41,035 bases of DNA. It comes from a bacterium. GTDB taxonomy: Bacteria > Patescibacteriota > Minisyncoccia > UBA6257 > JACOXY01. This document shows positions 1,101 to 40,129 of this stretch, piece after piece; the first letter of the stretch is position 1, and each line of letters opens with the position of its first letter. Below the pieces are notes generated by a model. It saw nothing but the letters and a program-made list of their open reading frames with translations. It made no database searches and had not been told where the DNA came from. The position numbers were made by a program, and so were the translations under genes. The stretch spans positions 1 through 41,035 of the forward strand of contig JAUXUB010000016.1 in the NCBI GenBank assembly GCA_030680955.1. The letters run 5' to 3'.

Positions 1101-1190
1101 TTCATGATAATAATTTAATTCATTAATATTTTTCGACTATGTGGTTATTATAACACCATATATAAAATTGTTCCTATAGCGACTTATTGA

Positions 1191-1344
1191 CACCATCCTC
1201 AATTAACCCCTTCCTATAAGACTTTTGTCATTGCGAGGGCGAAGCCCGCGGCAATCCAAGAAATAATGAGATAAATCTGGATTGCTTCGTCGTTCCTCCT
1301 CGCAAAGACGAGATTAAAAGAGTAATGGTTAATTGGGGATGGTA
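1191..1344 (+). mobile_element. 154-bp multi-hairpin MITE, copy 1 (orientation A)
   Basis: CACCATCCTCAATTAACC...GTCATTGCGAGGGCGAAGCCCGCGGCAATCC...CTGGATTGCTTCGTCGTTCCTCCTCGCAAAGACGAG...GGTTAATTGGGGATGGTA. About 90 percent or more identical by eye to the three other copies. Confidence 0.85.
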
Positions 1345-1352
1345 TGATTAGC

Positions 1353-1380
1353 AAAAAAAGAGCTCAGTTTACGAGCTCTT
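1353..1380 (-). terminator. Rho-independent terminator of ORF 1369-1764
   Basis: The minus strand reads AAGAGCTC-GTAAACT-GAGCTCTT followed by TTTTTTT. The stem overlaps the stop codon. Confidence 0.7.
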
Positions 1381-2023: not shown

Positions 2024-4216
2024 GTGCTAAAGGAATTGCCATCGGAGTACAATCCAAAAGAATACGAAGAAAAGATGTACAAACTCTGGGAAGACAGTGG
2101 TTTTTTTAATCCAGACAATTTACCTAAAGTTTCAAAACAAAAAAACTTTAGTATCATAATGCCGCCACCTAATGCAAATGGAGCGCTCCATATGGGGCAT
2201 GCGCTTTTTGTAACTTTACAAGACATAATGATTCGATATAAAAGAATGCAGGGATATAAAACACTATGGCTTCCAGGGGCAGATCATGCCGGTTTTGAAA
2301 CTCAAGTTGTTTACCAAAAGAAACTAGAAAAAGAAGGACGGTCTTTTTGGGAAGTGCCAAAAGATAAACTTTACGAGGAAATTTTAGCTTTTACACTAGA
2401 GAATAAAAAACATATGGAAAGCCAGCTTAGGCAACTTGGTGCTTCCTGTGATTGGGGAAGAGAGAAATTCACGCTAGACGATGATATTAAAAAAATAGTT
2501 TATGAAACATTTAAAAAACTTTATGATGACAATTTAGTATATAAAGCGGAGCGCCCTGTAAATTGGTGTACCAGACACCAAACAACCTTATCTGATTTAG
2601 AAATAAAGCACGAGGAGCGAAAAGATAAATTATTTTATGTTCGTTACAAATTTGAAAATTCTGAAGATTATATAGTTGTTGCTACAACAAGACCAGAAAC
2701 AATTCCGGCAGATATTGCGATCGCTGTAAACCCAAAATCAAAATGGAATAAATATGTTGGTAAGAAAGTTTTAAATCCACTTACTCAAGAGGCAATCTTG
2801 ATTATTAGCGATAAGCGCGTAGAAATTTCATTCGGAACTGGTGCGCTTAAAATAACGCCATATCACGACGCGTTAGACTTTGAAATATATAAGGATCATC
2901 CCGAACTACCAGCTTCAAAAAGTGTTATTAATAAATTTGGAGCAATAGAAAATTCTGGGACTAAACTTGATGGATTAAAAATATTGCCAGCAAGAGAAAA
3001 GTCTATAGAAATTTTAAAATTTTCACTAGACAAAGAACCAGAAGATTATGTTCACCAAGTTAGTATTTGCTACAAGTGCAATACTTTAATTGAACCAAGA
3101 ATAATGAATCAGTGGTTTATTAAGACCACCGAAAAATCAAAAACTGGTAGTAAATCTCTAAGAGACCTCGCGATAGATGCAGTAAAGACAAAAAAAGTAA
3201 AATTTGTAACAAAGAAGTTTGAAAAGATTTTCATGCATTGGATGAAGAATCTACGAGATTGGAATATATCTAGGCAAATTGTATGGGGTATTAAAATTCC
3301 AGCTTGGTATCATGAACCAATATGCATACCAAAAAAAGGCCACGAAGGTGATGTGGTGAAATGTAATGAAATTATAATTTCGATGGATGAACCAATATGC
3401 GAGTTTTGCGATGCAAAATTTATACAAGAGTCTGATGTTTTTGATACTTGGTTTTCTTCAGGTCAATGGCCATTCGCATCACTAATGTCCACTCATAATA
3501 AAAATGATTTTAAAGATTTTTATCCAACTGATGTGATGGAAACTGGATGGGATATTTTATTCTTTTGGATAGCAAGAATGATAATGTTGGGAACATACAA
3601 AACAGGTAAAGTGCCTTTCAAAACTGTTTACCTTCATGGGTTGGTTCGCGACAAAGACCGACAAAAAATGTCTAAATCTAAGGGCAATGTTATTGACCCT
3701 CTTGGTGTAGCAGATATTTATGGTGCAGATGCCATAAGAATGTCGCTTGTTGTTGGAACTGCTCCAGGAAATGACCCCGTTATTTCTGAAGATAAAATAC
3801 GCGGTTATAGGAATTTTGCAACAAAAATTTGGAATGCTACAAGACTAATAACAATGCGTGGGTCAAGCACGATTCCAGAAAAACCTAATTATACGAACGA
3901 AGATAAAAAAACACTAAAAGAATTTGAAAAATTCAAAAAAACAGTTATTAAAGATATGGATGCCTATCGCTTTCACGAAGCTTCAAATAAAATTTATCAT
4001 TATTTCTGGCATACTTTTGCCGACAAAATTCTTGAATCATCAAAAGCGCGCTTGCAAGATGAAAATAAAAAAGTTAAAGAAACCGCAACGGCATTTCTCA
4101 TTAAACTCTTAACAGAGCAATTAAAGCTTCTACATCCATTTATGCCTTTTGTAACAGAAGCTATTTGGCAAGAATTATATGGTGGAAAGAAAATATTAAT
4201 GGTGGAAAAATTGTGA
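2024..4216 (+). CDS. valS: Valine--tRNA ligase
   Basis: Class I motifs are present: PPPNANGALHMGH (HIGH) and KMSKSKGN (KMSKS). A CP1 editing region and an anticodon-binding domain are also present. GTG start, TGA stop. At 730 aa there is no C-terminal coiled-coil extension. Confidence 0.95.
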   Translation: MLKELPSEYNPKEYEEKMYKLWEDSGFFNPDNLPKVSKQKNFSIIMPPPNANGALHMGHALFVTLQDIMIRYKRMQGYKTLWLPGADHAGFETQVVYQKKLEKEGRSFWEVPKDKLYEEILAFTLENKKHMESQLRQLGASCDWGREKFTLDDDIKKIVYETFKKLYDDNLVYKAERPVNWCTRHQTTLSDLEIKHEERKDKLFYVRYKFENSEDYIVVATTRPETIPADIAIAVNPKSKWNKYVGKKVLNPLTQEAILIISDKRVEISFGTGALKITPYHDALDFEIYKDHPELPASKSVINKFGAIENSGTKLDGLKILPAREKSIEILKFSLDKEPEDYVHQVSICYKCNTLIEPRIMNQWFIKTTEKSKTGSKSLRDLAIDAVKTKKVKFVTKKFEKIFMHWMKNLRDWNISRQIVWGIKIPAWYHEPICIPKKGHEGDVVKCNEIIISMDEPICEFCDAKFIQESDVFDTWFSSGQWPFASLMSTHNKNDFKDFYPTDVMETGWDILFFWIARMIMLGTYKTGKVPFKTVYLHGLVRDKDRQKMSKSKGNVIDPLGVADIYGADAIRMSLVVGTAPGNDPVISEDKIRGYRNFATKIWNATRLITMRGSSTIPEKPNYTNEDKKTLKEFEKFKKTVIKDMDAYRFHEASNKIYHYFWHTFADKILESSKARLQDENKKVKETATAFLIKLLTEQLKLLHPFMPFVTEAIWQELYGGKKILMVEKL

Positions 4217-4370
4217 TACCATCCTCAATTAACCACTTCCTATAAGATTTTTGTCATTGCGAGGGCGAAGCCCGCGGCAATCTAGAAAAAAACGGGATAA
4301 ATCTGGATTGCTTCGTCGTTCCTCCTCGCAAAGACGAAGTTAAAAGAATAGTGGTTAATTGGGGATGGTA
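4217..4370 (+). mobile_element. 154-bp multi-hairpin MITE, copy 3 (orientation A)
   Basis: It begins immediately after the valS TGA and has TA at both ends. Confidence 0.85.
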
Positions 4371-4374
4371 TAAT
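4366..4374 (+). promoter_or_regulatory. TGGTATAAT at the MITE copy 3 right junction, facing the prsW-like gene
   Basis: Same junction sequence as at 1960 and 12023. It lies about 210 nt upstream of ATG 4585. Confidence 0.35.
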
Positions 4375-4446
4375 TTTAAGTGAAAATATTATTACAAATA
4401 AAAATAAGGAGAATAGACCTTTTGCACAATTATATTCGTAACGAGA

Positions 4447-11800: not shown

Positions 11801-11873
11801 TGGTTCGATGGAGCTACTTCGACAAGCTCAGTATAAATCACCACAGGTGGGCTTTTTTGTTTTTTTAATATAA

Positions 11874-12027
11874 TACCATCCCCAATTAACCACTACTCTT
11901 TTAATCTCGTCTTTGCGAGGAGGAACGACGAAGCAATCCAGATTTATCCCATTATTTCCTGGATTGCCGCGGGCTTCGCCCTCGCAATGACAAAAGTCTT
12001 ATAGGAAGTGGTTAATTGAGGATGGTA
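11874..12027 (-). mobile_element. 154-bp multi-hairpin MITE, copy 4 (orientation B)
   Basis: Near-identical to copy 2, with TA at both ends. It lies between rpmB and tRNA-Pro. Confidence 0.85.
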
Positions 12028-12031
12028 TAAT
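12023..12031 (+). promoter_or_regulatory. TGGTATAAT at the MITE copy 4 right junction, 30 nt upstream of tRNA-Pro(GGG)
   Basis: GGATGG|TA|TAATAAAG. The spacing is compatible with a short tRNA leader. Confidence 0.5.
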
Positions 12032-12060
12032 AAAGTAGACTTAAGATATTATAAAATTAC

Positions 12061-16576: not shown

Positions 16577-16723
16577 TTAAAAATGAGGTGGACGACTATT
16601 TAAAGTCTTATGCGCGAGGGGCGCGGTAGATGGATTTAGAATCCATTAAATTTTAGCGGTATTAAGTTATCAAAGAATCCTTAATAGTATACACCAAAGT
16701 CGCAATATTAAAAATGCAGAACT

Positions 16724-16856
16724 GTGGATAACCGGGTAGTGAAAATACGAGCGTTTTTTAAGGTTTTTGAACGAAAAATTTGGAATATCTAAGTTAAAGA
16801 GAATGTTCTCGAGTTAGTATTTGTTTCAAAACTCGTATTTCTACTACCCGGATAAC
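16724..16856. mobile_element. MITE-like element, GGATAACCGGGTAGT family, copy 1
   Basis: Ends are GTGGATAACCGGGTAGTGAAAATACGAGCG and CAAAACTCGTATTTCTACTACCCGGATAAC. The 20-nt TIR core matches at 18 of 20 positions. It lies 9 bp after the trpD stop. Confidence 0.65.
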
Positions 16857-16864
16857 TTTTCAAC

Positions 16865-19482: not shown

Positions 19483-20361
19483 TTAAATTTTTACAACCAA
19501 GCTCTTTAGTTTATTTTCAATCATTTGAATTGGATAAAGATCTTTGGCATAAATTTCAATTAGTCTTATTCCAGATTTCCTACAGAGCATTCTCTTTCTT
19601 TTAATAGCTCGGTCATAGCGCGGACTATCTTTAGCTAGACCAAAATATTCTATAAAAGTTTTTTCACTAATACTCCAATCTGCACGATGTCCTGTTTTTG
19701 GATATGGAGCTTCTCTTTTGTGAGAAATATTATTTTTAGTCAACCAATCATCAATAATCGCTTCGGAAATAGAATCACAATTATGACCATCACTAGCAAC
19801 TGTATTTGATCGTTTGTACATGCGCTGACTATGTGAACGGTGGGGCATAAGACCAGCTGCAAGGATGGCTTTATTCCAAGAACCAAATTCCCTAATGCAC
19901 GCATCTACAATAAACATAGCCTCACGTTTTGCTGGAGTGCGCCCCAATGCTTTAGACATAAATTGTAATTTATTGATAAGCGCTTGTGGTGTATGAATTT
20001 TTCGCACAGACCATAGACACTTCCTGCTACAATATTTTGTACTGCCTTTTATTTTAACCCCACAATTAGCACAAATCTTAAAACCCGGCCCGCGTTTTGG
20101 GAACTTTTGATCGTTGATATGAGCGGCACAACTTCTTGAACAATAACTATGGTCTACTTTAAGAATTTGATTCGGGCAACGATAAAATCTGTTTTCACAT
20201 TCTGCATTACTGCAATGCAATTCCAAGCTCGTAACTTTTGACTTAGTCATGCATTGTTTGGAACAGTATTGTTTCCATTTAAATTTCTTTGCTTCATTTA
20301 CCCGCCCTTGCGGCCGTAAAAATATTTTTTTACACAAGGCGCATTTTACTTGAATATTCAT
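19483..20361 (-). CDS. Zinc-ribbon repeat protein with homing-endonuclease-associated repeat and C-terminal PD-(D/E)xK-like nuclease-type domain
   Basis: Three YCSxxC/CxxC zinc-ribbon units. LGRTPAKREAMFIVDACIREFGSWNKAILAAGL resembles the HNH-associated repeat. The tail ...SEAIIDDWL...ADWSI..KTFIEYFGL...GIRLIEI resembles Vsr/restriction-endonuclease-like folds. Motif-level call only. Confidence 0.45.
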   Translation of the reverse strand: MNIQVKCALCKKIFLRPQGRVNEAKKFKWKQYCSKQCMTKSKVTSLELHCSNAECENRFYRCPNQILKVDHSYCSRSCAAHINDQKFPKRGPGFKICANCGVKIKGSTKYCSRKCLWSVRKIHTPQALINKLQFMSKALGRTPAKREAMFIVDACIREFGSWNKAILAAGLMPHRSHSQRMYKRSNTVASDGHNCDSISEAIIDDWLTKNNISHKREAPYPKTGHRADWSISEKTFIEYFGLAKDSPRYDRAIKRKRMLCRKSGIRLIEIYAKDLYPIQMIENKLKSLVVKI

Positions 20362-26249: not shown

Positions 26250-26267
26250 TTTCCACTATTTCAACAT

Positions 26268-27017
26268 TATTTACGTCATCGCAAGACGTAAATATTATTC
26301 CAACACTAACTTTTTAATACTATCCAAATCTAAATTTTGAAGCCAAGATTTTATACTTTTTTTATATCCATCCGGTCCATCAAAAAATTCAGATAATAAC
26401 TCTCTTTGGGTAACTGAGGGGAAATTTTTCTCCCCAGAGTAATCACGATGACTCGACCAGCGATAGCTATCTAAAAATTCAATTGCTTTCCTATAATTCG
26501 TCAATTTGCGATCTCGCCATTCCTTAAATTTAAAATCTAATGGATTGAAATGAATATAGTATGGAAGGTGAATAAAATGTGCGTCGTTCTTAACCGGAAC
26601 AGATTTAAATCTCCCCTCAAACAAAGTTCCGACTCTTTCGTATTTATTGTTAAAATACTTGGCATATCCCATATTAACTTTTTTCATAAACAATGAGATA
26701 CTACCCTCGTGACGAGGAGAAATAAGAAGGTGATAGTGATTATCCATCAAACAAAAAACGTGTAGATCAACCAATAACTTTCTTGGCTTCTTTTCATTGG
26801 GTTCAAATTTACGTCTTGCGATGACGTTAAATTGATAATAAGTGCTATTCGCTGGTTCTTGATTATTAAATTCAAATAAGTCGTGAATGAAGCGGTAGCG
26901 ATCCTCATCATCCATAAATATTTTTCTTTTATCTACTCCTCTACTTAAAACGTGATATATTTCACTCATAATGTAATATATAATATCCCAATATTTACGT
27001 CATCGCAAGACGTTAAT
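26268..27017 (-). mobile_element. IS200/RAYT-like unit: Y1 (HUH) transposase gene bracketed by two copies of one hairpin
   Basis: The hairpin TATTTACGTC-ATCGCAA-GACGTAAATA at 26268-26294 is repeated in the same orientation at 26993-27017 with one stem mismatch. The surrounding roughly 35 bp are also repeated. Confidence 0.65.
26295..26969 (-). CDS. REP-associated tyrosine transposase (RAYT) / IS200-like Y1 HUH transposase
   Basis: HUH motif MDNHYHLL, then YIHFNP and RWSSH, as in COG1943/RAYT proteins. 224 aa. Confidence 0.75.
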   Translation of the reverse strand: MSEIYHVLSRGVDKRKIFMDDEDRYRFIHDLFEFNNQEPANSTYYQFNVIARRKFEPNEKKPRKLLVDLHVFCLMDNHYHLLISPRHEGSISLFMKKVNMGYAKYFNNKYERVGTLFEGRFKSVPVKNDAHFIHLPYYIHFNPLDFKFKEWRDRKLTNYRKAIEFLDSYRWSSHRDYSGEKNFPSVTQRELLSEFFDGPDGYKKSIKSWLQNLDLDSIKKLVLE

Positions 27018-27018
27018 A

Positions 27019-29556
27019 TTATTTTAATATTTTTCTAAGATATTCACCTGTTGCACTTCCTGCACATCGTGCAACATCTTCTGGAGTTCCTTGCGCAATA
27101 ATCTTTCCGCCCTTAACTCCACCTTCTGGGCCTAAGTCAATTACCCAATCGGCACATTTTATAACATCTAAATTATGCTCAATAACAATTATTGAATTTC
27201 CCTTTTCAACAAGTTTTTGCAAAACATCCATTAAGTTTTGGATGTCGGCAAAGTGAAGGCCTGTAGTTGGCTCGTCTAACAAATATAGTGTCCGTCTTGT
27301 ATCGGGCTTTCCTAATTCAGAAGAAAGTTTAATTCTTTGAGCCTCGCCACCAGATAAGGTCGTCGCAGATTGTCCTAATTGCAAATATTCCAAACCAACA
27401 TCACCCATTATTTTTAAACGCTCATAAAGCCAAGGAATATCCCTAAAAAATACTATAGCTTCTTCTACTGTCATCTTAAGTATGTCGTGTATATTTTTAT
27501 CCTTGTATTCCACCGCTAGCGTTTCACGATCAAAACGTTTGCCTTTGCAAACATCACACTCAACATAAACTGTTGGTAAAAAGTGCATTTCAATTGCTAT
27601 AGTTCCGTGTCCTTCACAGTTCTCACAACGCCCTCCTGGAACATTAAAACTAAATCGCCCAGGTTTATAACCTCGAACTCGCGCATCTTCGGTCGAAGCA
27701 AAAAGTTCCCTGATATAAGTCCATGCACCTACATACGTTGCCGGATTAGATCTTGGAGTTCTTCCTATGGCAGATTGGTCAATATTAATTATTCTATTAA
27801 AATACTCCAAACCCAATATTGAGTTAACTCCATCTACTTTGAAGCTTGATCTATTTAGTTTATTAGAAACATATTTATAAATAACGTCATAAACCAAAGA
27901 ACTTTTACCAGAACCCGAAACTCCAGTAACAGCCACTAACCTACGAAGTGGAATGTCTACATTTATATTTTGAAGATTGTTAGTTGAGGCACCGCGAATT
28001 TTTAGATAATCATGTTGCTTCGTGATACTTCTTCGCTTCTCTGGAATAGGAATAGTAACTTTTCCACGCAAATAATCTAATGTTAGCGATTTATACTTAT
28101 CTTTATCCTTAATTATTTGAGGCATAGGACCTTCTGCTACTATATGTCCGCCGTGGACTCCAGCACCTGGTCCGATATCAACAAGATAATCTGCGGTTCT
28201 AATAGTATCTTCGTCGTGCTCAACAATAATTATAGTATTACCAATATCTCGTAAATTTTTTAGTGTTTCAATAAGTTTTGCATTATCTCTCTGGTGCAAC
28301 CCAATTGTCGGCTCGTCTAATATATATAAAGTTCCTACAAGCCGTGAGCCAATTTGTGAGGCAAGCCGAATACGCTGGGCTTCTCCACCTGACAAGGTTC
28401 CAGCCATTCTGTTTAGTGTTAAATATTCTAATCCTACGTCAAACATAAATTGAAGACGACTTCTAACCTCACGAAGCGGCACTTCGGCAATACTTAATTT
28501 AGTCTCATCAAGTGATTTTTGAACATCGGTTATCCATTGTTTTGATTCACTAATAGACATTGCCACAACTCCTGCAATATTTTTCCCCTCAACTAAAACA
28601 CTTAAAGCTTCGCGTCTTAGACGCTTTCCATCGCATACTGGACAAACTTTCTCAGAAAAAAGAGATTCTGTCCCGAGTCCGTTACAAGCCGTACACGCTC
28701 CATAGGGACTATTGAACGAGAATAATCTTGGCTCTATTTCTAAAAATGCAAAACCATCTCGGGCGCAAGTAAATTTTGCTGAAAATGAATGCTCATCATT
28801 GCCGTCTGCAATTACGGTAACAACATCATTTCCATATTTAAGAGCTGACTCAATTGCCTCTGCAAGACGAAGTCGATTATCTTTTCCATCCTTAATAGAA
28901 AAATCTAGCATTTGAGGGATTCGATCTACTAACAATTCTATTGTATGAGCCTTATAACGAGAAAGTTCGATTCTATTTCTAAGTGATTTAAATTCTCCAT
29001 CTATTCTAATCTCAGAAAAACCTGCATTTAAAAAATTATAAAGCATCTGATAATATTCCCCTTTTCTACCACGTACTACAGGTGCCAAAATTAAAATATT
29101 TTTGTCTGTTTTTGCTTTTTTAAACAATCGTATGACAGCATCCACTATCTCTTCTTTTGTAAGTTTCTTTATCTCGTGACCACAATCTGGACAGTGCGGT
29201 ACACCTGAGCGCGCAAAGAGCACACGAAGATAATCATAGATTTCTGTAATGGTTGCAACTGTTGAACGAGGATTATGTGAATGACTTTTCTGGTCAATTG
29301 AAATGGCTGGCGAAAGACCTTCAATCTCATCCACGTCTGGCTTATCTAATTTACCTAAAAACTGACGCGCATAAGCAGAAAGAGACTCAATGTAACGTCT
29401 TTGCCCTTCCGCAAAAATGGTATCAAACGCTAAGCTAGACTTACCCGAACCGGAAAGCCCAGTAAATACTATCATTTTATTTCGAGGTAATCTCAAAGAT
29501 ATATTTTTAAGATTATGCTCTCTTGCTCCTTTTATTGTAATAAAGTCTTGTGCCAT
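27019..29556 (-). CDS. uvrA: Excinuclease ABC subunit A (845 aa, lacks the insertion domain)
   Basis: Two ABC modules (GLSGSGKSS, GVSGSGKSS, two LSGGEAQR) and zinc modules. Only 9 residues separate CTACNGLG and CPVCDGKRL. Confidence 0.95.
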   Translation of the reverse strand: MAQDFITIKGAREHNLKNISLRLPRNKMIVFTGLSGSGKSSLAFDTIFAEGQRRYIESLSAYARQFLGKLDKPDVDEIEGLSPAISIDQKSHSHNPRSTVATITEIYDYLRVLFARSGVPHCPDCGHEIKKLTKEEIVDAVIRLFKKAKTDKNILILAPVVRGRKGEYYQMLYNFLNAGFSEIRIDGEFKSLRNRIELSRYKAHTIELLVDRIPQMLDFSIKDGKDNRLRLAEAIESALKYGNDVVTVIADGNDEHSFSAKFTCARDGFAFLEIEPRLFSFNSPYGACTACNGLGTESLFSEKVCPVCDGKRLRREALSVLVEGKNIAGVVAMSISESKQWITDVQKSLDETKLSIAEVPLREVRSRLQFMFDVGLEYLTLNRMAGTLSGGEAQRIRLASQIGSRLVGTLYILDEPTIGLHQRDNAKLIETLKNLRDIGNTIIIVEHDEDTIRTADYLVDIGPGAGVHGGHIVAEGPMPQIIKDKDKYKSLTLDYLRGKVTIPIPEKRRSITKQHDYLKIRGASTNNLQNINVDIPLRRLVAVTGVSGSGKSSLVYDVIYKYVSNKLNRSSFKVDGVNSILGLEYFNRIINIDQSAIGRTPRSNPATYVGAWTYIRELFASTEDARVRGYKPGRFSFNVPGGRCENCEGHGTIAIEMHFLPTVYVECDVCKGKRFDRETLAVEYKDKNIHDILKMTVEEAIVFFRDIPWLYERLKIMGDVGLEYLQLGQSATTLSGGEAQRIKLSSELGKPDTRRTLYLLDEPTTGLHFADIQNLMDVLQKLVEKGNSIIVIEHNLDVIKCADWVIDLGPEGGVKGGKIIAQGTPEDVARCAGSATGEYLRKILK

Positions 29557-35439: not shown

Positions 35440-36021
35440 CTACTCGAATATCAAAACGGCGGCAGAAATAGTGGTTGTCCACAAGCCGTTTTTGTCACCT
35501 TGAGCGGACTGAGTATTATTCATTGTTTTAAAAATCTTTCCAGAAGATTTATAAACCTGTTCGCGCTCATCCCATGCGGCATTAGAATCAAATTCCAAAC
35601 CTAATGTCGTCGCCAGCATTGTTGCCGCTAAATCTTCGGCATACTCTCCTGCTTTCTCGTCAGTCTCGCCAAATGGATGATGTTCAGAAAGATAACCATA
35701 TTGGGCAGGATCTGACGGCAAGGCCAAACCAATTGAGGCAGCAATTAAACGATTTGGTTCATTAGTAGCGTTCCTCGCCATTACACAAAAAACAACTTGA
35801 CCAGGAACCATGAACTTCTTTCCTTCTTCCCTCGTTATACGTTTACAATTCGGTGGGAAAATTGAACTTACATAAACTAAATTAAATTCTGCAATTCCAG
35901 CGTCTCAAAGCGCCAACTCAAATGAAGCTAAATAATCTTTGTGACGACCTACGCCCTTTGTAAGAAACATTCTTTTTGGAACAAAGGTTTCCGTGTGAGA
36001 AGAACTATTTGTGTTTTCCAT
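35440..36021 (-). pseudogene. pdaD: Pyruvoyl-dependent arginine decarboxylase interrupted by one in-frame TGA (codon 39)
   Basis: From ATG 36021: [56 protein letters not shown]..., continuing in frame into track ORF 35440-35811. The TGA at 35905-35907 sits where PdaD proteins have Arg (ELALRDA). Confidence 0.7.
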
Positions 36022-36031
36022 TTTCTATATT

Positions 36032-36067
36032 TACCCGCCTAAGTTTCTTAATAAGAAATTTTGGAGG
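36032..36067. repeat. Imperfect palindrome just upstream of the pdaD ATG, sharing a motif with 9314-9330
   Basis: TACCCGCCTAAGTTTCTTA / TAAGAAATTTTGGAGG. Confidence 0.4.
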
Positions 36068-36124
36068 ATTTATTTTAATATTAATTGAAATTATTATACG
36101 AGTATTTATTTTCTAATACAAGGT

Positions 36125-36256
36125 GTGGATAACCAGGTAGTGAAAATGCGAGCGTATTTATAATTACAGCAATAGAACATTTACGATATTAACGCTTTTG
36201 TCTATCATTTTAAATCAAATGTATTTCAAAACTCGCATTTCTACTACCTGGATAAG
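36125..36256. mobile_element. MITE-like element, GGATAACCGGGTAGT family, copy 2
   Basis: GTGGATAACCAGGTAGTGAAAATGCGAGCG ... CAAAACTCGCATTTCTACTACCTGGATAAG. The ends match copy 1 but the core is unrelated. Confidence 0.65.
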
Positions 36257-36287
36257 TTGTTCGGGTAATAAGAAGATAAAAAAATGG

Positions 36288-36338
36288 CTTATCCGGTAAC
36301 CGAAACACAGGAAAATAATATTTGGGTTACCAGATAAG
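36288..36338. repeat. Hairpin module with 14-bp stem, related to 38700-38749
   Basis: CTTATCCGGTAACC [GAAACACAGGAAAATAATATTTG] GGTTACCAGATAAG. Confidence 0.6.
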
Positions 36339-36422
36339 AAGAAAGACCGATATTTACAGAAAATCAATATTTGGGTAGTCGGATGTCGGGGTTATCCGAC
36401 TTCAGGGGACATCGGACTTCAT

Positions 36423-36467
36423 GGGGTCATCGGGTCAGGGAGATTACACGTCCGCCATCTCTAATGA
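36423..36467. repeat. Decayed right end of a CCCGTTAGA-family element
   Basis: GGGGTCATCGGGTCAGGGAGATTACACGTCCGCCATCTCTAATGA aligns with 38735-38780. Confidence 0.55.
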
Positions 36468-36527
36468 TATAAGTCCTAAAAGCTATGCCAGAGAGCAAAC
36501 CGTAACGAAAAGTATTATGCAAAAGGT

Positions 36528-37370
36528 CTACTGATAAAAAACTTTATTTTCTGACCTAAAGTCCACGTATTTAATTTCATTAAGCTTTGGCTTTAAAGAT
36601 AGAAGTGGATCCTTTATAAAATTTGGATCTAAACGCAAACTAAAATAAAGAATTGCGCCATTAGAAGTTACCGCATGGATCTCCTGATATTTAAGATCTG
36701 GCAAAATATATTTAACTATTCTAACTTCTGATTTATCTAAAACATCGAAAATTGAAAATATGCGGTTTAAAAGTGTCTTAGGCAACAAATAAGATCCTGC
36801 CTCAAGAGCCCGTCCATTTGTTTCGTAAATACTTTTTACTAAAATTCCGGATGATGCTGGCGCTTTGGCAAATAGCAAACCATCTACGTCAAACCAAAAA
36901 CAATTTGCTGTTTGATCTTTTGTATCTAAATCGGTAGATATTTTTGTAAAAGTTCCGGTTGATAAAGTTGATGAAGAACTTTCTTGCGAAGAAGCAGACG
37001 TGCTGACTATAACTGGAGTGGCAGAATCATAAACGCCACACCAAATGCCGAATGGTTTTCTCTCTTCTACATCTAATACAAGAGTTTTCTGTAATATATT
37101 TTTGTGCACTACTATTTTTGCAACAAGGAGATTCGTGACTTCAACCTTTCCAAAAAGATATGGCATTATAGATCCCGGAAACAAATCCTCTTTGGTAATA
37201 ACAGACGCACCGTTTAGAACTATGCTACTAAATCTAAAAACGTTCGTAAAATATATTGTATACAGTAATCCCCCGCCACCACCAACTAAAAGAACAGTAA
37301 AAATTGTAAGAATAATTTTTGCTTTACGTCGTCGCTTCTTCTTTTGAAGTGATTGGTTGTAATCTTGCAA
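36528..37370 (-). CDS. FtsQ/DivIB-like cell division protein (POTRA domain)
   Basis: Basic N-terminus, one TM segment, then ...FRFSSIVLNGASVITKEDL..., which is POTRA-like. The TTG start is uncertain. Confidence 0.5.
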   Translation of the reverse strand: MQDYNQSLQKKKRRRKAKIILTIFTVLLVGGGGGLLYTIYFTNVFRFSSIVLNGASVITKEDLFPGSIMPYLFGKVEVTNLLVAKIVVHKNILQKTLVLDVEERKPFGIWCGVYDSATPVIVSTSASSQESSSSTLSTGTFTKISTDLDTKDQTANCFWFDVDGLLFAKAPASSGILVKSIYETNGRALEAGSYLLPKTLLNRIFSIFDVLDKSEVRIVKYILPDLKYQEIHAVTSNGAILYFSLRLDPNFIKDPLLSLKPKLNEIKYVDFRSENKVFYQ

Positions 37371-37374
37371 ATTA

Positions 37375-37402
37375 GAATCAGGAATCAGGAATCAGGAATC
37401 AG
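37375..37402 (+). repeat. Heptanucleotide tandem repeat (GAATCAG) x4
   Basis: Four perfect units starting 5 bp upstream of the annotated ftsQ-like start. Confidence 0.85.
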
Positions 37403-37441: not shown

Positions 37442-37460
37442 ATACTTGATACTTGATACA
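37442..37460 (+). repeat. Heptanucleotide tandem repeat (ATACTTG) x2.7
   Basis: ATACTTGATACTTGATACA, just downstream of the alr stop. Confidence 0.7.
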
Positions 37461-37467
37461 TGTCACA

Positions 37468-38553
37468 TTATACAATTATCCTCTCAATAAGTGGATTTAT
37501 TCTTGTCAAAAACTCATAGTAAGATGTTCTTGCTTTAAAGCTTGCGTCTATTATATCAATTTCAACTTTATCCATTATTTTGCAGGCAATATCGGTTACG
37601 TCCACCATAACTACATCCATAGTTACTCTCCCTAATATCTTTGCTCTCTCATTATTAATTATAACATCGCCAACGCCAGAGAGGGCCCAAGGAAGACCAT
37701 GCCAATAACCAATTGGTAAAATTCCAATTTTGGTTTTTCGATTTAATCTTTCGGTTAAATCATAACTCACATAACTTCCCTTAGGCGCTTCTTTAATTTC
37801 ACTTATGATAGTTTTCCAGCGTAAAACTGGTTTAAGTTTTATTTGTGGAAATTGTATTTTTATTTCTTTTGAAGGAGCGTGCCCATAAAGCCCCATTCCA
37901 ATACGAACCATATCAAAATGATATTTCGGATTAAGTATAGTAGCGGACGATGCCGCGGCATGCTTAATAAGTTTTGTAAAACCTTTTTTTGCAAAAAGTG
38001 CTATAGCTTTCTGAAATTTTTGGAACTGCATTTCGGTATAAGTTGGATAATTAATATCTTTTGCGGAAGAGAAATGCGTATAAATACCTTCCACGCATGT
38101 GACATGTAACATGTTACGTGTTACTAGTTTTATCACTTGTGGTATTTCATTAATAAAGAAGCCCTGTCGATTCATCCCTGTATCTATTTTAATATGAATT
38201 TTTGGTTTATTTTTTGACTTTATCCAATCTTTTAATGCATTAATGTTTGATATTGTAATGGCACAATTATTTTTGATGACGACATCATAATTTGAAGACA
38301 GAGTCATTCCCAAAACTAAAATTGGTTTTTTTATATTATGCTTACGCAACGTTTCTGCTTCAAAGACAGAGTCTACACAAAAATAATCCACACCACTACT
38401 TACTATTACAGCATAATCATATAAACCATGACCATAGGCGTTACTTTTAACAACCGAGGCAAGTTTAACCTTAGGCCCAATGAGACCTCTAAAAACGCCA
38501 ATATTATGGATTGCAGCTTTTTGATTTATTTCAATCCATGTCTTTAATTTCAT
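37468..38553 (-). CDS. alr: Alanine racemase
   Basis: MKLKTWIEINQKAAIHNI...VVKSNAYGHG (PLP lysine motif)...YGHAPS. The start is moved to ATG 38553, because the 54 extra codons in the track are read-through of the repeat. Confidence 0.85.
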   Translation of the reverse strand: MKLKTWIEINQKAAIHNIGVFRGLIGPKVKLASVVKSNAYGHGLYDYAVIVSSGVDYFCVDSVFEAETLRKHNIKKPILVLGMTLSSNYDVVIKNNCAITISNINALKDWIKSKNKPKIHIKIDTGMNRQGFFINEIPQVIKLVTRNMLHVTCVEGIYTHFSSAKDINYPTYTEMQFQKFQKAIALFAKKGFTKLIKHAAASSATILNPKYHFDMVRIGMGLYGHAPSKEIKIQFPQIKLKPVLRWKTIISEIKEAPKGSYVSYDLTERLNRKTKIGILPIGYWHGLPWALSGVGDVIINNERAKILGRVTMDVVMVDVTDIACKIMDKVEIDIIDASFKARTSYYEFLTRINPLIERIIV

Positions 38554-38780
38554 CCCGTTAGAAATAGGACGCGTTAGAAATTTTACCAACCGACAGATTT
38601 GGTAAATATAATGTTTTATTGATTTGAAATATAATTTCCATAAAATATTAGTTTTTAAATTTCTAAACGGGATAGGACGCGGACATAAAACCATATTCGC
38701 TGACCCGATGACCAAGACAGGGGCAATAATATTTGGGTCATCAGGTCAGGTGGATTACGCGTCCGCTATTTCTAACGGGA
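38553..38780. mobile_element. MITE-like element, CCCGTTAGA-TIR family, composite copy
   Basis: TCCCGTTAGAAATAGGACGC ... GCGTCCGCTATTTCTAACGGGA. TTCA lies at 38549-38552 and 38781-38784. Confidence 0.8.
38572..38671. mobile_element. 100-bp inner element nested in the composite copy
   Basis: CGTTAGAAATTTTACCAACCGACA ... AAATTTCTAAACGGG, with ATAGGACGC on both sides. Homolog of 895-994. Confidence 0.6.
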
Positions 38781-38782
38781 TT

Positions 38783-38837
38783 CATAAAATCACTAGATCA
38801 TTAAATCAAAGTGTTCTAGTGTTCTAGTGATTTTATG
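38783..38837. repeat. About 55-bp palindromic motif, copy B, overlapping the serS 3' end
   Basis: CATAAAATCACTAGATCATTAAATCAAAGTGTTCTAGTGTTCTAGTGATTTTATG. The 11-bp arms are AAAATCACTAG / CTAGTGATTTT. It contains an 8-bp tandem duplication. Confidence 0.6.
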
Positions 38838-40129
38838 ACCTTCTTGCCCAAATATTTCTGCAAAACTTTAGGAACAAGAATTTTGCCATTGTTATTTTGA
38901 TAATTTTCAATAATTGCTATCAACATTCTACCTATTGCAAAAACTGTACCATTTAACATATGAACATATTCGGCACCTTGATCTGAATCTGCTCCTTCTT
39001 TTCTATATTTAATATTTAATCTACGCGACTGAAAATCTGTTGTATTAGATGTTGAATGAGTTTCACGATATTCACCTAGTCCATTTTTCTGACCAGGCAT
39101 CCAAGCCTCGATATCAAATTTTGAAGCGGCTGGATCTCCGAGGTCTCCAGTGCAAATATTTAAAACATGATATGGCAATTTTAGTAATTGCATCAAATGT
39201 TCTTCAATCGCAAGTAGAAGTTGATGTTCCACTTCTGATTTATCTGGTGTTGTAATTGAAAACATTTCTACTTTATCAAATTGGTGTACTCGCAGTATTC
39301 CCTTGGTATCTTTTCCATACGAACCAGCCTCACGACGAAAACAAGAAGAGAAAGAAACATAACGCCTAGGTAGTTCAATTTCTGCAAAAGTTTCACCTGC
39401 ATGCATTGGACCAATAGACTGTTCTGAAGTACCAACTAGATAAAGATCATCTTGAATGCTGTAAATTTCTTCTCCGCTACGATCCATATAACCCATAGCT
39501 GCCATCATTTCGCTCTTGATTAATACTGGAGGCACAACTGGAATAAATGGCGTTGAATCTACCATTAGTTTCTTATTACGTATAATATTCTTAATTTTTT
39601 TCTCATCTCCTAAAGTCTGAAATGCAAGTTGAACCAAAGCAAATTCTAGTAATGCGGCATCGCCAATCAAATAGCCGAACCTGCTACCAGATACTTTTGA
39701 AGCTCGTTCGATATTTATTATATTTAATTCCTCTCCTAATGAAAGATAATCCTTTGGGATTGGAAAGGCTACTTTTTTCTTGCCAACTTCACGAAGCACA
39801 ATATTGTCAGTTTCATCTTTTCCAATAGGAACTGAAGAAAGGGGCAAATTTGGTATTTGTCTTAAAATTGCATTTCTTTTTTCATCAAGTTCTTTAAGTG
39901 TTCCTTCAAGTGCTTTTATCTCATCTTTTAAGAGTTTAGCTTTAGTAATATCACGTGCTTCTCCTGCTTTTTTCTGATCTGACCTCAAATCTTCAACATT
40001 TTTTGTAACGGATCGCCAATTAGTATCTATAGCTAAAAACTCATCTACCAGACTAGGATTTATGTTTTTTGATGAAATGCCTTTTTTTATTAAATCCGGA
40101 TTTTCACGGATATATTTAATGTCTAACAT
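38816..40129 (-). CDS. serS: Serine--tRNA ligase
   Basis: N-terminal coiled-coil arm (MLDIKYIRENPD...) and class II motifs (FRREAGSYGKDTKGILRVHQF, GDLG, GTVFAIGRMLIAIIENYQ). Confidence 0.95.
   Translation of the reverse strand: MLDIKYIRENPDLIKKGISSKNINPSLVDEFLAIDTNWRSVTKNVEDLRSDQKKAGEARDITKAKLLKDEIKALEGTLKELDEKRNAILRQIPNLPLSSVPIGKDETDNIVLREVGKKKVAFPIPKDYLSLGEELNIINIERASKVSGSRFGYLIGDAALLEFALVQLAFQTLGDEKKIKNIIRNKKLMVDSTPFIPVVPPVLIKSEMMAAMGYMDRSGEEIYSIQDDLYLVGTSEQSIGPMHAGETFAEIELPRRYVSFSSCFRREAGSYGKDTKGILRVHQFDKVEMFSITTPDKSEVEHQLLLAIEEHLMQLLKLPYHVLNICTGDLGDPAASKFDIEAWMPGQKNGLGEYRETHSTSNTTDFQSRRLNIKYRKEGADSDQGAEYVHMLNGTVFAIGRMLIAIIENYQNNNGKILVPKVLQKYLGKKVIKSLEH

Follow-up and report, generated by a model that had tools for sequence, protein, structure and literature searches.

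The window analyzed here, a 41,035-nucleotide stretch of DNA, is contig C15 of a 1.07-Mb draft genome (36% G+C, 80 contigs) of an ultra-small member of the Patescibacteria, whose relatives have genomes of 0.5-1.3 Mb. It carries a hairpin at positions 36288-36338, between pdaD and a gene of 280 amino acids, and a second hairpin of the same plan at 38700-38749. We propose that the hairpin is probably a copy of a repeat of the repetitive extragenic palindrome (REP) type, in the form of an inverted REP doublet (REPIN), likely mobilized by Y1 HUH transposases resembling REP-associated tyrosine transposases (RAYTs), and not a dedicated RNA gene. An earlier note on this DNA had compared the two hairpins by eye and had read the compensated changes between their stems as selection on a structure, either an RNA or a DNA hairpin recognized by a protein.

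Results

Arm pairing is conserved in a genome-wide hairpin family

The two hairpins stand where the earlier note had placed them, with matching sequence (Table 1). As it had said, their loops are similar: the 22-nt loop at 38700-38749 ends in AATAATATTTG, as the loop at 36288-36338 does. Their stems differ at four positions, all of them compensated (left-arm positions 3, 5, 9 and 11 versus right-arm complements 12, 10, 6 and 4), and a C stands opposite an A at stem position 7 in both. The loop motif AATAATATTTGGG was found in just these two hairpins of the window (shuffled windows held 0.2 matches on average, and two matches in 2 of 100). As RNA, both hairpins out-folded shuffled sequence, with z-scores of -3.2 to -7.8.

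A genome-wide scan for hairpins ending in ATATTTG revealed about 60 true modules, and a covariance model built from 44 copies gave 75 matches in the 1.07 Mb, including the two window hairpins at 71.1 bits (36288-36338, E 6.7e-16) and 71.3 bits (38700-38749). About 0.5% of the genome's DNA belongs to this family. The modules follow one plan. On the 5' side, (C)AATATT and 2 nt precede a 14-nt left arm, xxxxxCCGAxxxCC; the loop of 22-27 nt starts with (A/T)AAGACA and ends with (C)AATATTTG; and the 14-nt right arm, GGxxxTCGGxxxxx, is often followed by GGGGA. Two heptads, GGANNTC in pattern (GANNTCC in the opposite arm), make up each arm, and an AATATT box precedes each arm. The genome holds at least 14 stem variants, nearly all fully paired. 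The modules are thus short, imperfect palindromes of high copy number and mostly extragenic, about 55 of 63 strong matches being intergenic. Copies also lie in frame within 8 real genes, whose reading frames remain open and gain about 22-25 residues; the products include a histidine kinase, a glycosidase, TsaD, an asparagine synthase, GlyA and a carbamoyltransferase. Many modules sit at contig ends. Across the 44 aligned copies we found no consistent flanking direct repeat; the 5' box of the left arm recurs in the loop, not after the right arm. GTAG occurs in modules solely inside the word GGTAGTC of one stem family.

Covariation, which the earlier note had proposed to test on all copies, was strong. 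In the 44 copies, 95.1% of cells were paired and 10 of the 14 pairs changed on both sides, with a covariation score of 0.584 versus 0.175 in shuffles (0 of 500 reached it) and at most 0.086 in slid registers. To allow for the non-independence of copies within a stem family, we then counted 28 distinct stems drawn from 8 genomes. Of their cells 98.2% were paired, 12 pairs changed on both sides, and the score was 0.651 versus 0.160 in shuffles (again 0 of 500) and at most 0.076 in slid registers. Since both sets had been chosen with pairing in mind, we also ran a search that was blind to it, using only the box and GGNNNYC. Of the 69 sites found, 52 had a partner upstream that formed 11 or more of the 14 Watson-Crick pairs, and for 47 the number was 13 or more, while controls never exceeded 10 of 14. 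The rest were right arms lacking a partner, units palindromic in themselves or matches due to chance. A class of copies with partly uncompensated stems, the observation that the earlier note had named as speaking against its reading, was not present among the 69 sites. What the note had concluded from compensation stands as far as the constraint on the stem goes, with its DNA-hairpin option favored; a host RNA gene did not emerge. The compensated differences separate amplified subfamilies of a mobile repeat, and therefore suggest selection for the hairpin competence of the element.

Y1 transposase genes are bracketed by palindromes built from module-arm words

The genome encodes three Y1 HUH transposases above the Pfam cut-off, at 26295-26969 of the window, C34:5848-6570 and C45:24499-25212. 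The three paralogues (224-240 aa, 53-59% identical) have the HUH motif, the YIHxNP tyrosine region and a conserved C-terminal extension containing YRWSS. The window protein scored 33.7-34.5 bits against Pfam Y1_Tnp (cut-off 23). In its AlphaFold model the pLDDT is 75-90 in the core and averages 61.5 overall; when the Protein Data Bank (PDB) was searched with Foldseek, the best match of the model was 4ER8, the E. coli TnpA-REP with its REP hairpin, followed by the TnpA proteins of ISDra2, IS608 and IS200, and the top 26 matches were all Y1 transposases. Searched against PDB as a single sequence the protein had no match, and a profile search gave a marginal one to ISDra2 (E 0.14). A TnpB-type partner, sought as PF07282, was not found in the genome.

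Each Y1 gene has a boxed palindrome of its own on either side. Further copies of that palindrome are scattered through the genome, and one lies in frame within the gene itself (Table 1). The palindrome words GGACTTC/GAAGTCC, GGTTACC/GGTAACC and CGATGAC are words of module arms as well. There is one simple palindrome family per Y1 gene, and the 14 or more module stems share words alone with these families.

Related loci elsewhere tie the palindromes to the modules more closely. A pattern scan of species genomes yielded 354 Y1 relatives, from Patescibacteria/Parcubacteria-type genomes. A G+C-containing word of 12 nt or more is common to the upstream and downstream flanks at 67 of 77 usable Patescibacteria loci; in control sets of mismatched flank pairings the mean was 4.2 such loci and the maximum 10. 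At two Giovannonibacteria-type loci (L096 and L099) the bracketing repeat TGGACATC(C/G)GATGTCCA, with TGGACATCCGATGTCCA shared, is identical to a module arm of our genome. The arms of the local modules in G020 and G078 come from the hairpin GG(A/T)C-TTGCGAT-G(T/A)CC (GGACTTGCGATGTCC / AACTTGCGATGTCC core) that brackets the Y1 gene there. Module arms thus correspond to bracketing REP units, and the module is therefore an inverted REP doublet, that is, a REPIN.

Modules and Y1 genes co-occur in the order

We scored both features in 150 other genomes of the order. Thirteen had both, 7 had modules alone, 22 had Y1 alone and 108 had neither (odds ratio 9.1, Fisher p 2e-5; related genomes are non-independent, and the positives span about ten families). 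Among 150 genomes from other orders of the phylum, modules were found in none and Y1 in 9, leaving 141 with neither. The module-rich genomes, G078 (at least 32), G136 (13) and G002 (11-17), all have a Y1 gene. The same-genus genome G001, whose genes are about 77% identical to those studied here, has no modules, and its Y1 match is weak (E 3e-7, 25% identity). One orthologous intergenic region measures 163 bp in G001 versus 453 bp on C58, where it holds four modules, a difference of 290 bp; the alignment of the two is too diverged to fix the insertion boundaries or a target site. Synteny with G001 is broken at the pdaD locus.

G078 comes from a different family within the order. There, two different modules stand head to head around an A+T-rich center and make up a mobile unit of about 170 bp. 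At least 16 such pairs were counted (for example L037:2019-2178, and on L033, L043, L048 and L049), a higher-order palindrome that was not seen in the genome of the window.

Intergenic modules are oriented relative to the flanking genes

Module orientation is not random. At intergenic loci between co-directional genes, the written module strand is antisense at 17 of 18 (binomial p 1.4e-4), whereas the copies inside genes show no bias (4-5 versus 4); the two groups differ at Fisher p 0.008. Local GC skew matches module orientation at about 30 of 40 loci; gene direction is thus the better predictor. Gene direction and replication strand are confounded on draft contigs, however, and just one locus is truly discordant. 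The two strands also differ in their mismatches: non-Watson-Crick cells on the written strand are 29 C·A versus 5 G·T, which means G·T or G·U wobbles on the gene-sense strand. The C/A mismatch of the earlier note, although present in both window stems, is really such a wobble on the gene-sense strand, the one that matters. As DNA, too, the gene-sense strand of the modules folds better. Both asymmetries, in mismatches and in the better fold of the opposite strand, fit recognition of a single strand.

Could the modules be kept mainly for a role in mRNA, with mobility as nothing but their origin? On this account they are sense-strand, 14-bp G·U hairpins that stabilize, attenuate, terminate or are processed by RNases, roles that have been reported for REP sequences of E. 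coli. The orientation contrast and the G·U wobbles, which nearly all mismatches give on the sense strand, agree with it, and so does folding: the sense RNA of the 36288 hairpin reaches -23.9 kcal/mol on the minus strand versus -18.2 on the plus strand (z-score -7.8), and that of the 38700 hairpin -24.1 versus -23.2 kcal/mol on the written strand (z-score -3.9). On the minus (gene-sense) strand CCAUUUUUUUAU follows the 36288 hairpin, which in the sense RNA has a run of seven U after its stem. However, the U run is peculiar to this copy, being shorter at the C58 paralogue and missing from the other copies, and a consensus terminator scan of the 36288 region found nothing. Head-to-head module pairs in G078, G030 and G136 present both orientations at each site, the bias in G002 is weaker (about 6 versus 3), and G001 lacks modules at the same loci. 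Furthermore, targeting of the lagging-strand template by Y1 together with strand-biased C-to-T mutation would give the same orientation and the same G·T asymmetry. We therefore regard a primary mRNA role as unlikely, though it is the most serious competitor of the REPIN reading.

As a separate observation, C54:17980-20522 is the sole intergenic cluster in which modules are oriented like the flanking genes. This 2.5-kb stretch has no open reading frame of 90 aa or more, and a C34-type palindrome lies at 19926.

The 36288-36467 region is a truncated copy of a nested composite

The earlier note had described the surroundings of the 36288 hairpin as a repeat graveyard in a non-coding gap that is large for this genome. 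The gap, from pdaD to the 280-aa gene, is indeed about 506 bp long (36022-36527). The repeats assigned to it are there as well: 36423-36467 copies the right end of the element at the alr locus (37 of 49 columns identical to 38735-38782), and 36125-36256 belongs to what the note had called the third family of miniature inverted-repeat transposable elements (MITEs), with 36124-36258 and 16723-16858 being 88-92% identical over their ends.

The arrangement is nevertheless structured. Word annotation of clusters and alignment of five paralogous loci revealed a recurrent composite in which the loop of a module from the commonest stem family houses a nested unit with the CTCATCC hairpin. The order is left arm GACATCCGACTAC, nested unit, then AAGACAcaaagtaaaCAATATTTG and right arm GGTAGTCGGATGTC, with a further chain of right arms at some loci. 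At C71, C49 and C13, right arm GGTAGTCGGATGTC has its left-arm partner upstream of the nested CTCATCC hairpin. The window copy has kept the nested hairpin, what follows it in the host module (loop tail, box and right arm), three further right arms and an element end; the left arm of the host is lost. At C71:6369-6420 and on C54, word annotation and alignment show its chain of right arms again, with order and linkers unchanged, and the junction between an arm and the end of the start-codon element is also present at C6, C60 and C71. The nearest paralogue, on C58, has the junction AAAAATGG followed by the hairpin, after a solo left end of the same 132-bp element that precedes the hairpin in the window. 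Because the composite recurs at four or five other loci in the same order and with the same linkers, the graveyard is better described as a truncated copy of it.

The inverted-repeat element found at start codons, as at alr, raises a second alternative, namely that the hairpins are cargo of this element and are moved by its nuclease rather than by Y1. The CTGACCC/GGTCATC stem family is regularly embedded between the ends of the element, at 38553-38784 and six to eight other loci, and the fragment at 36425-36467 joins a right arm to the element's right end. But the association is limited to this one stem family; by a partial census most modules have no such ends nearby, and modules occur in genomes and contexts without the element. 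The alr element is also present in both same-genus genomes (38553-38784 here, L027:6100-6215 in G001), and only the copy studied here has the hairpin and extra internal sequence. The hairpin was therefore added later to the element, which makes cargo an improbable explanation; the alr pair is a natural before/after pair for a nested insertion.

Least credible to us is a third proposal, that the GGANNTC heptads are double-stranded sites for a host protein of the nucleoid or gyrase type, as proposed for bacterial interspersed mosaic elements (BIMEs), with inversion reflecting dimer binding: fixed arm positions (GG...YC.G), the 7-bp periodicity, direct-orientation chains of partner-less right arms and a mosaic word order that recalls BIMEs would suit it, but such sites have no need of arms that co-vary over 12 positions or pair all-or-none in a pairing-blind search, they leave the strand-asymmetric mismatches unexplained, G001 has none of them, and a candidate binding protein was not identified.

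Several specific candidates were rejected. In an Rfam scan of the gap no family reached its gathering score, and the only match of any kind was the lysM-TM7 RNA (RF03005), a family from a lineage of the candidate phyla radiation (CPR). At 20.3 bits versus a gathering score of 61.5 (E 0.14-0.29), with an alignment that spans the neighboring repeat and two modules with long insertions, the region is not a member. A pseudoknot between the 5' AATATT and the loop AATATT would need a 1-2-nt linker to span a 14-bp stem, which it cannot (a purely geometric argument). CUGAUGA, as in hammerhead ribozymes, occurs on the minus strand of one stem family and is judged a coincidence because the other families lack it. 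Integron attC and Xer sites seem unlikely, as the modules have no GTTRRRY/RYYYAAC cores.

Table 1. Features of the window and palindromes of the three Y1 genes (positions are those of the window)
Feature	Position	Strand	Details
Hairpin module, CTCATCC/GGTTACC stem family (CTTATC variant)	36288-36338	+	CTTATCCGGTAACC / GAAACACAGGAAAATAATATTTG / GGTTACCAGATAAG; left arm 36288-36301; 23-nt loop 36302-36324 ending AATAATATTTG; right arm 36325-36338
Hairpin module, CTGACCC/GGTCATC family	38700-38749	+	CTGACCCGATGACC / AAGACAGGGGCAATAATATTTG / GGTCATCAGGTCAG; inside start-codon element between serS and alr
Y1 HUH (IS200/RAYT-type) transposase gene, 224 aa	26295-26969	minus	HUH motif NHYHLL; catalytic Tyr region YYIHFNP
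AATATT-boxed palindrome	26265-26299	+	TTTACGTC-ATCGCAA-GACGTAAA; immediately downstream of window Y1 gene
Second AATATT-boxed palindrome	26989-27023	+	Immediately upstream of window Y1 gene; 94% identical to 26265-26299
Inverted copy of window palindrome	26797-26830	minus	In frame inside Y1 gene, N-terminal to HUH motif
Window Y1 flanking palindrome			AATATT-TACGTC-ATCGCAA-GACGT-WAATATT; 7 copies (3 at locus, 4 dispersed)
C34 Y1 flanking palindrome			AATATAT-CGTAACC-N-GGTTACG-ATATATT; about 18 copies genome-wide
C45 Y1 flanking palindrome			CAATATT-CGGACTT-GCG-AAGTCCG-AATATTG; 7 copies genome-wide
Unrelated inverted-repeat element, 132 bp	36125-36256		Directly upstream of hairpin; second copy 16723-16858
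5'-truncated module, commonest stem family	36350-36387	+	Remnant box ATATTT; loop tail CAGAAAATC; left arm gone; AATATT box 36366-36371; TG; right arm GGTAGTCGGATGTC at 36374-36387
Three partner-less right arms	36390-36438	+	GGTTATCCGACTTC 36390-36403; GGACATCGGACTTC 36407-36420; GGTCATCGGGTCAG 36425-36438
Decayed right end of start-codon inverted-repeat element	36439-36467	+	GGAGATTACACGTCCGCCATCTCTAATGA; after last right arm, as in intact copies
pdaD	35440-36021	minus	One in-frame TGA
280-aa gene	36528-37370	minus	No Pfam match
alr	37468-38553	minus
serS	38816-40129	minus

Neighboring genes and other repeats

The 280-aa gene, which the earlier note had called ftsQ-like, has no match in Pfam, so that this label is unverified. 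The in-frame TGA of pdaD lies at 35905-35907 (minus strand, ELAL*DAGI), at a site where we take the pyruvoyl-dependent arginine decarboxylase family to have Arg. Because the other long genes of the window read through without TGA, a pseudogene made by point mutation, an error of sequencing or local recoding seems likelier than an alternative genetic code.

Two heptamer tandem arrays, (GAATCAG)x4 at 37375-37402 and (ATACTTG)x2.5 at 37442-37459, lie between the 280-aa gene and alr; a heptad periodicity is common to these arrays and the module arms. Two copies of GTGTTCTA occur inside a 27-nt inverted repeat at about 38782-38838. Finally, a repeat of about 170 nt with ends TACCATCCCCAATTAACCACT / AGTGGTTAATTGAGGATGGTA and an internal G+C-rich palindrome has four copies in the window (1182-1358, 1790-1968, 4211-4379 and 11853-12036), 91-94% identical and in both orientations, and a further copy directly downstream of the C34 Y1 gene.

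Discussion

Taken together, these results suggest that the modules are non-autonomous elements. Each would consist of two inverted REP units, a unit being a boxed 14-nt arm of two heptads, whose arms would pair in single-stranded DNA. A Y1 enzyme would then recognize the hairpin and a short adjacent sequence on one DNA strand, which would explain why the stems vary solely by changes that are matched on the other arm, and why the box, the central CCG/CGG and the apical CC/GG are fixed. New copies would land between genes, in the loops of resident copies and occasionally in frame within genes; later deletions would leave partner-less right arms, and 36288-36467 may be one such composite, nested and then truncated. 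By analogy with the behavior of IS200/IS605 and TnpA-REP enzymes (PMC6006769), the Y1 protein may cut and move the modules with the AATATT box as its guide or cleavage site, and lagging-strand-template targeting would account for their orientation.

Several observations weigh against this model. In our genome, no repeat that flanks a Y1 gene is identical to the abundant module arms; what they have in common is words and the box. Among 80 loci, long-loop modules beside Y1 genes amount to 2 weak cases, and simple short-loop palindromes stand there instead. At least 14 stem variants face three transposases, which is not the one-to-one pairing of classical REP-RAYT systems, and the canonical GT[AG]G foot is missing from the module consensus. 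The three Y1 proteins score 32.8, 38.5 and 45.5 bits with NCBIfam REP_Tyr_transpos, all under the 80-bit cut-off. Across the order, 7 genomes carry modules but no strong Y1 match, and 22 carry Y1 but no modules. The contrast between the 17 of 18 intergenic modules and the unbiased in-gene copies hints at an extra constraint at the transcript level.

More tentatively, and as a possibility that we hold with distinctly less confidence than the REPIN assignment itself, Patescibacteria, in lineages of the class Paceibacteria type, may have a REP-RAYT system of their own. AATATT would take the place of GTAG as guide or cleavage box, the GGANNTC heptads would be interchangeable, a few structure-reading Y1 proteins would serve many stems, and the doublets would be partly domesticated as oriented mRNA hairpins.

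REP, REPIN and BIME elements with their RAYT (TnpA-REP) Y1 HUH transposases were described in Proteobacteria (Bertels and Rainey 2011, PMC3116915; Quentin et al. 2018, PMC6006769). The modules resemble them in being short, high-copy, mostly extragenic palindromes that form inverted doublets with a longer hairpin (as REPINs do) and BIME-like mosaic clusters. The Y1 HUH genes are bracketed by their own repeat, as in a "REPtron", with several paralogues that each have a repeat of their own, and the model of the window protein is nearest in fold to TnpA-REP 4ER8. The REP-RAYT pair was reportedly also studied by Nunvar in 2010 and by Ton-Hoang in 2012. In RAYT subclass 2.4, repeat copies lie in frame inside the transposase gene (PMC6006769), just as each Y1 gene here holds its own. 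The differences are equally clear. The modules use an AATATT box 2 nt from the arm and no GT[AG]G foot, they have two-heptad arms, the conserved loop end AATATTTG and many stems for three transposases, and their doublet form, with its more complex grammar, is not the form that flanks the Y1 genes. The Y1 proteins are 224-240 aa long with the YRWSS extension and fall below the NCBIfam RAYT cut-off, and the host is an ultra-small Patescibacteria genome. Our literature search turned up no publication that links REP, REPIN or RAYT to Patescibacteria or the candidate phyla radiation.

Two other systems are comparable. By description, the Rickettsia palindromic elements (RPEs) are also palindromes of a reduced genome, both intergenic and in frame in housekeeping genes; here, however, most copies are intergenic and a candidate transposase is present, whereas to our knowledge no transposase is associated with RPEs. 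IS200/IS605 elements and palindrome-associated transposable elements (PATEs) likewise combine a Y1 transposase acting on single-stranded hairpins with strand-specific elements whose orientation is tied to one strand, and the two-hairpin units of about 170 bp in G078 resemble elements with left-end and right-end hairpins. Unlike insertion sequences with multiple identical copies, the Y1 genes studied here are diverged paralogues, they have no TnpB-type gene in the genome, and the dispersed repeats far outnumber them.

In practice, the modules fragment assemblies, can pass for structured RNAs through their covariation and lengthen predicted proteins. Ultra-small CPR/Patescibacteria genomes are generally regarded as tightly streamlined, yet this one devotes about 0.5% of its DNA to a single hairpin family, with copies inside housekeeping genes. 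What is new is the link between the module repeats and a widespread family of repeat-bracketed Y1 transposases. This link gives the repeats a testable mechanism and would extend the REP-RAYT partnership, mainly proteobacterial so far, to a very distant phylum with a different motif.

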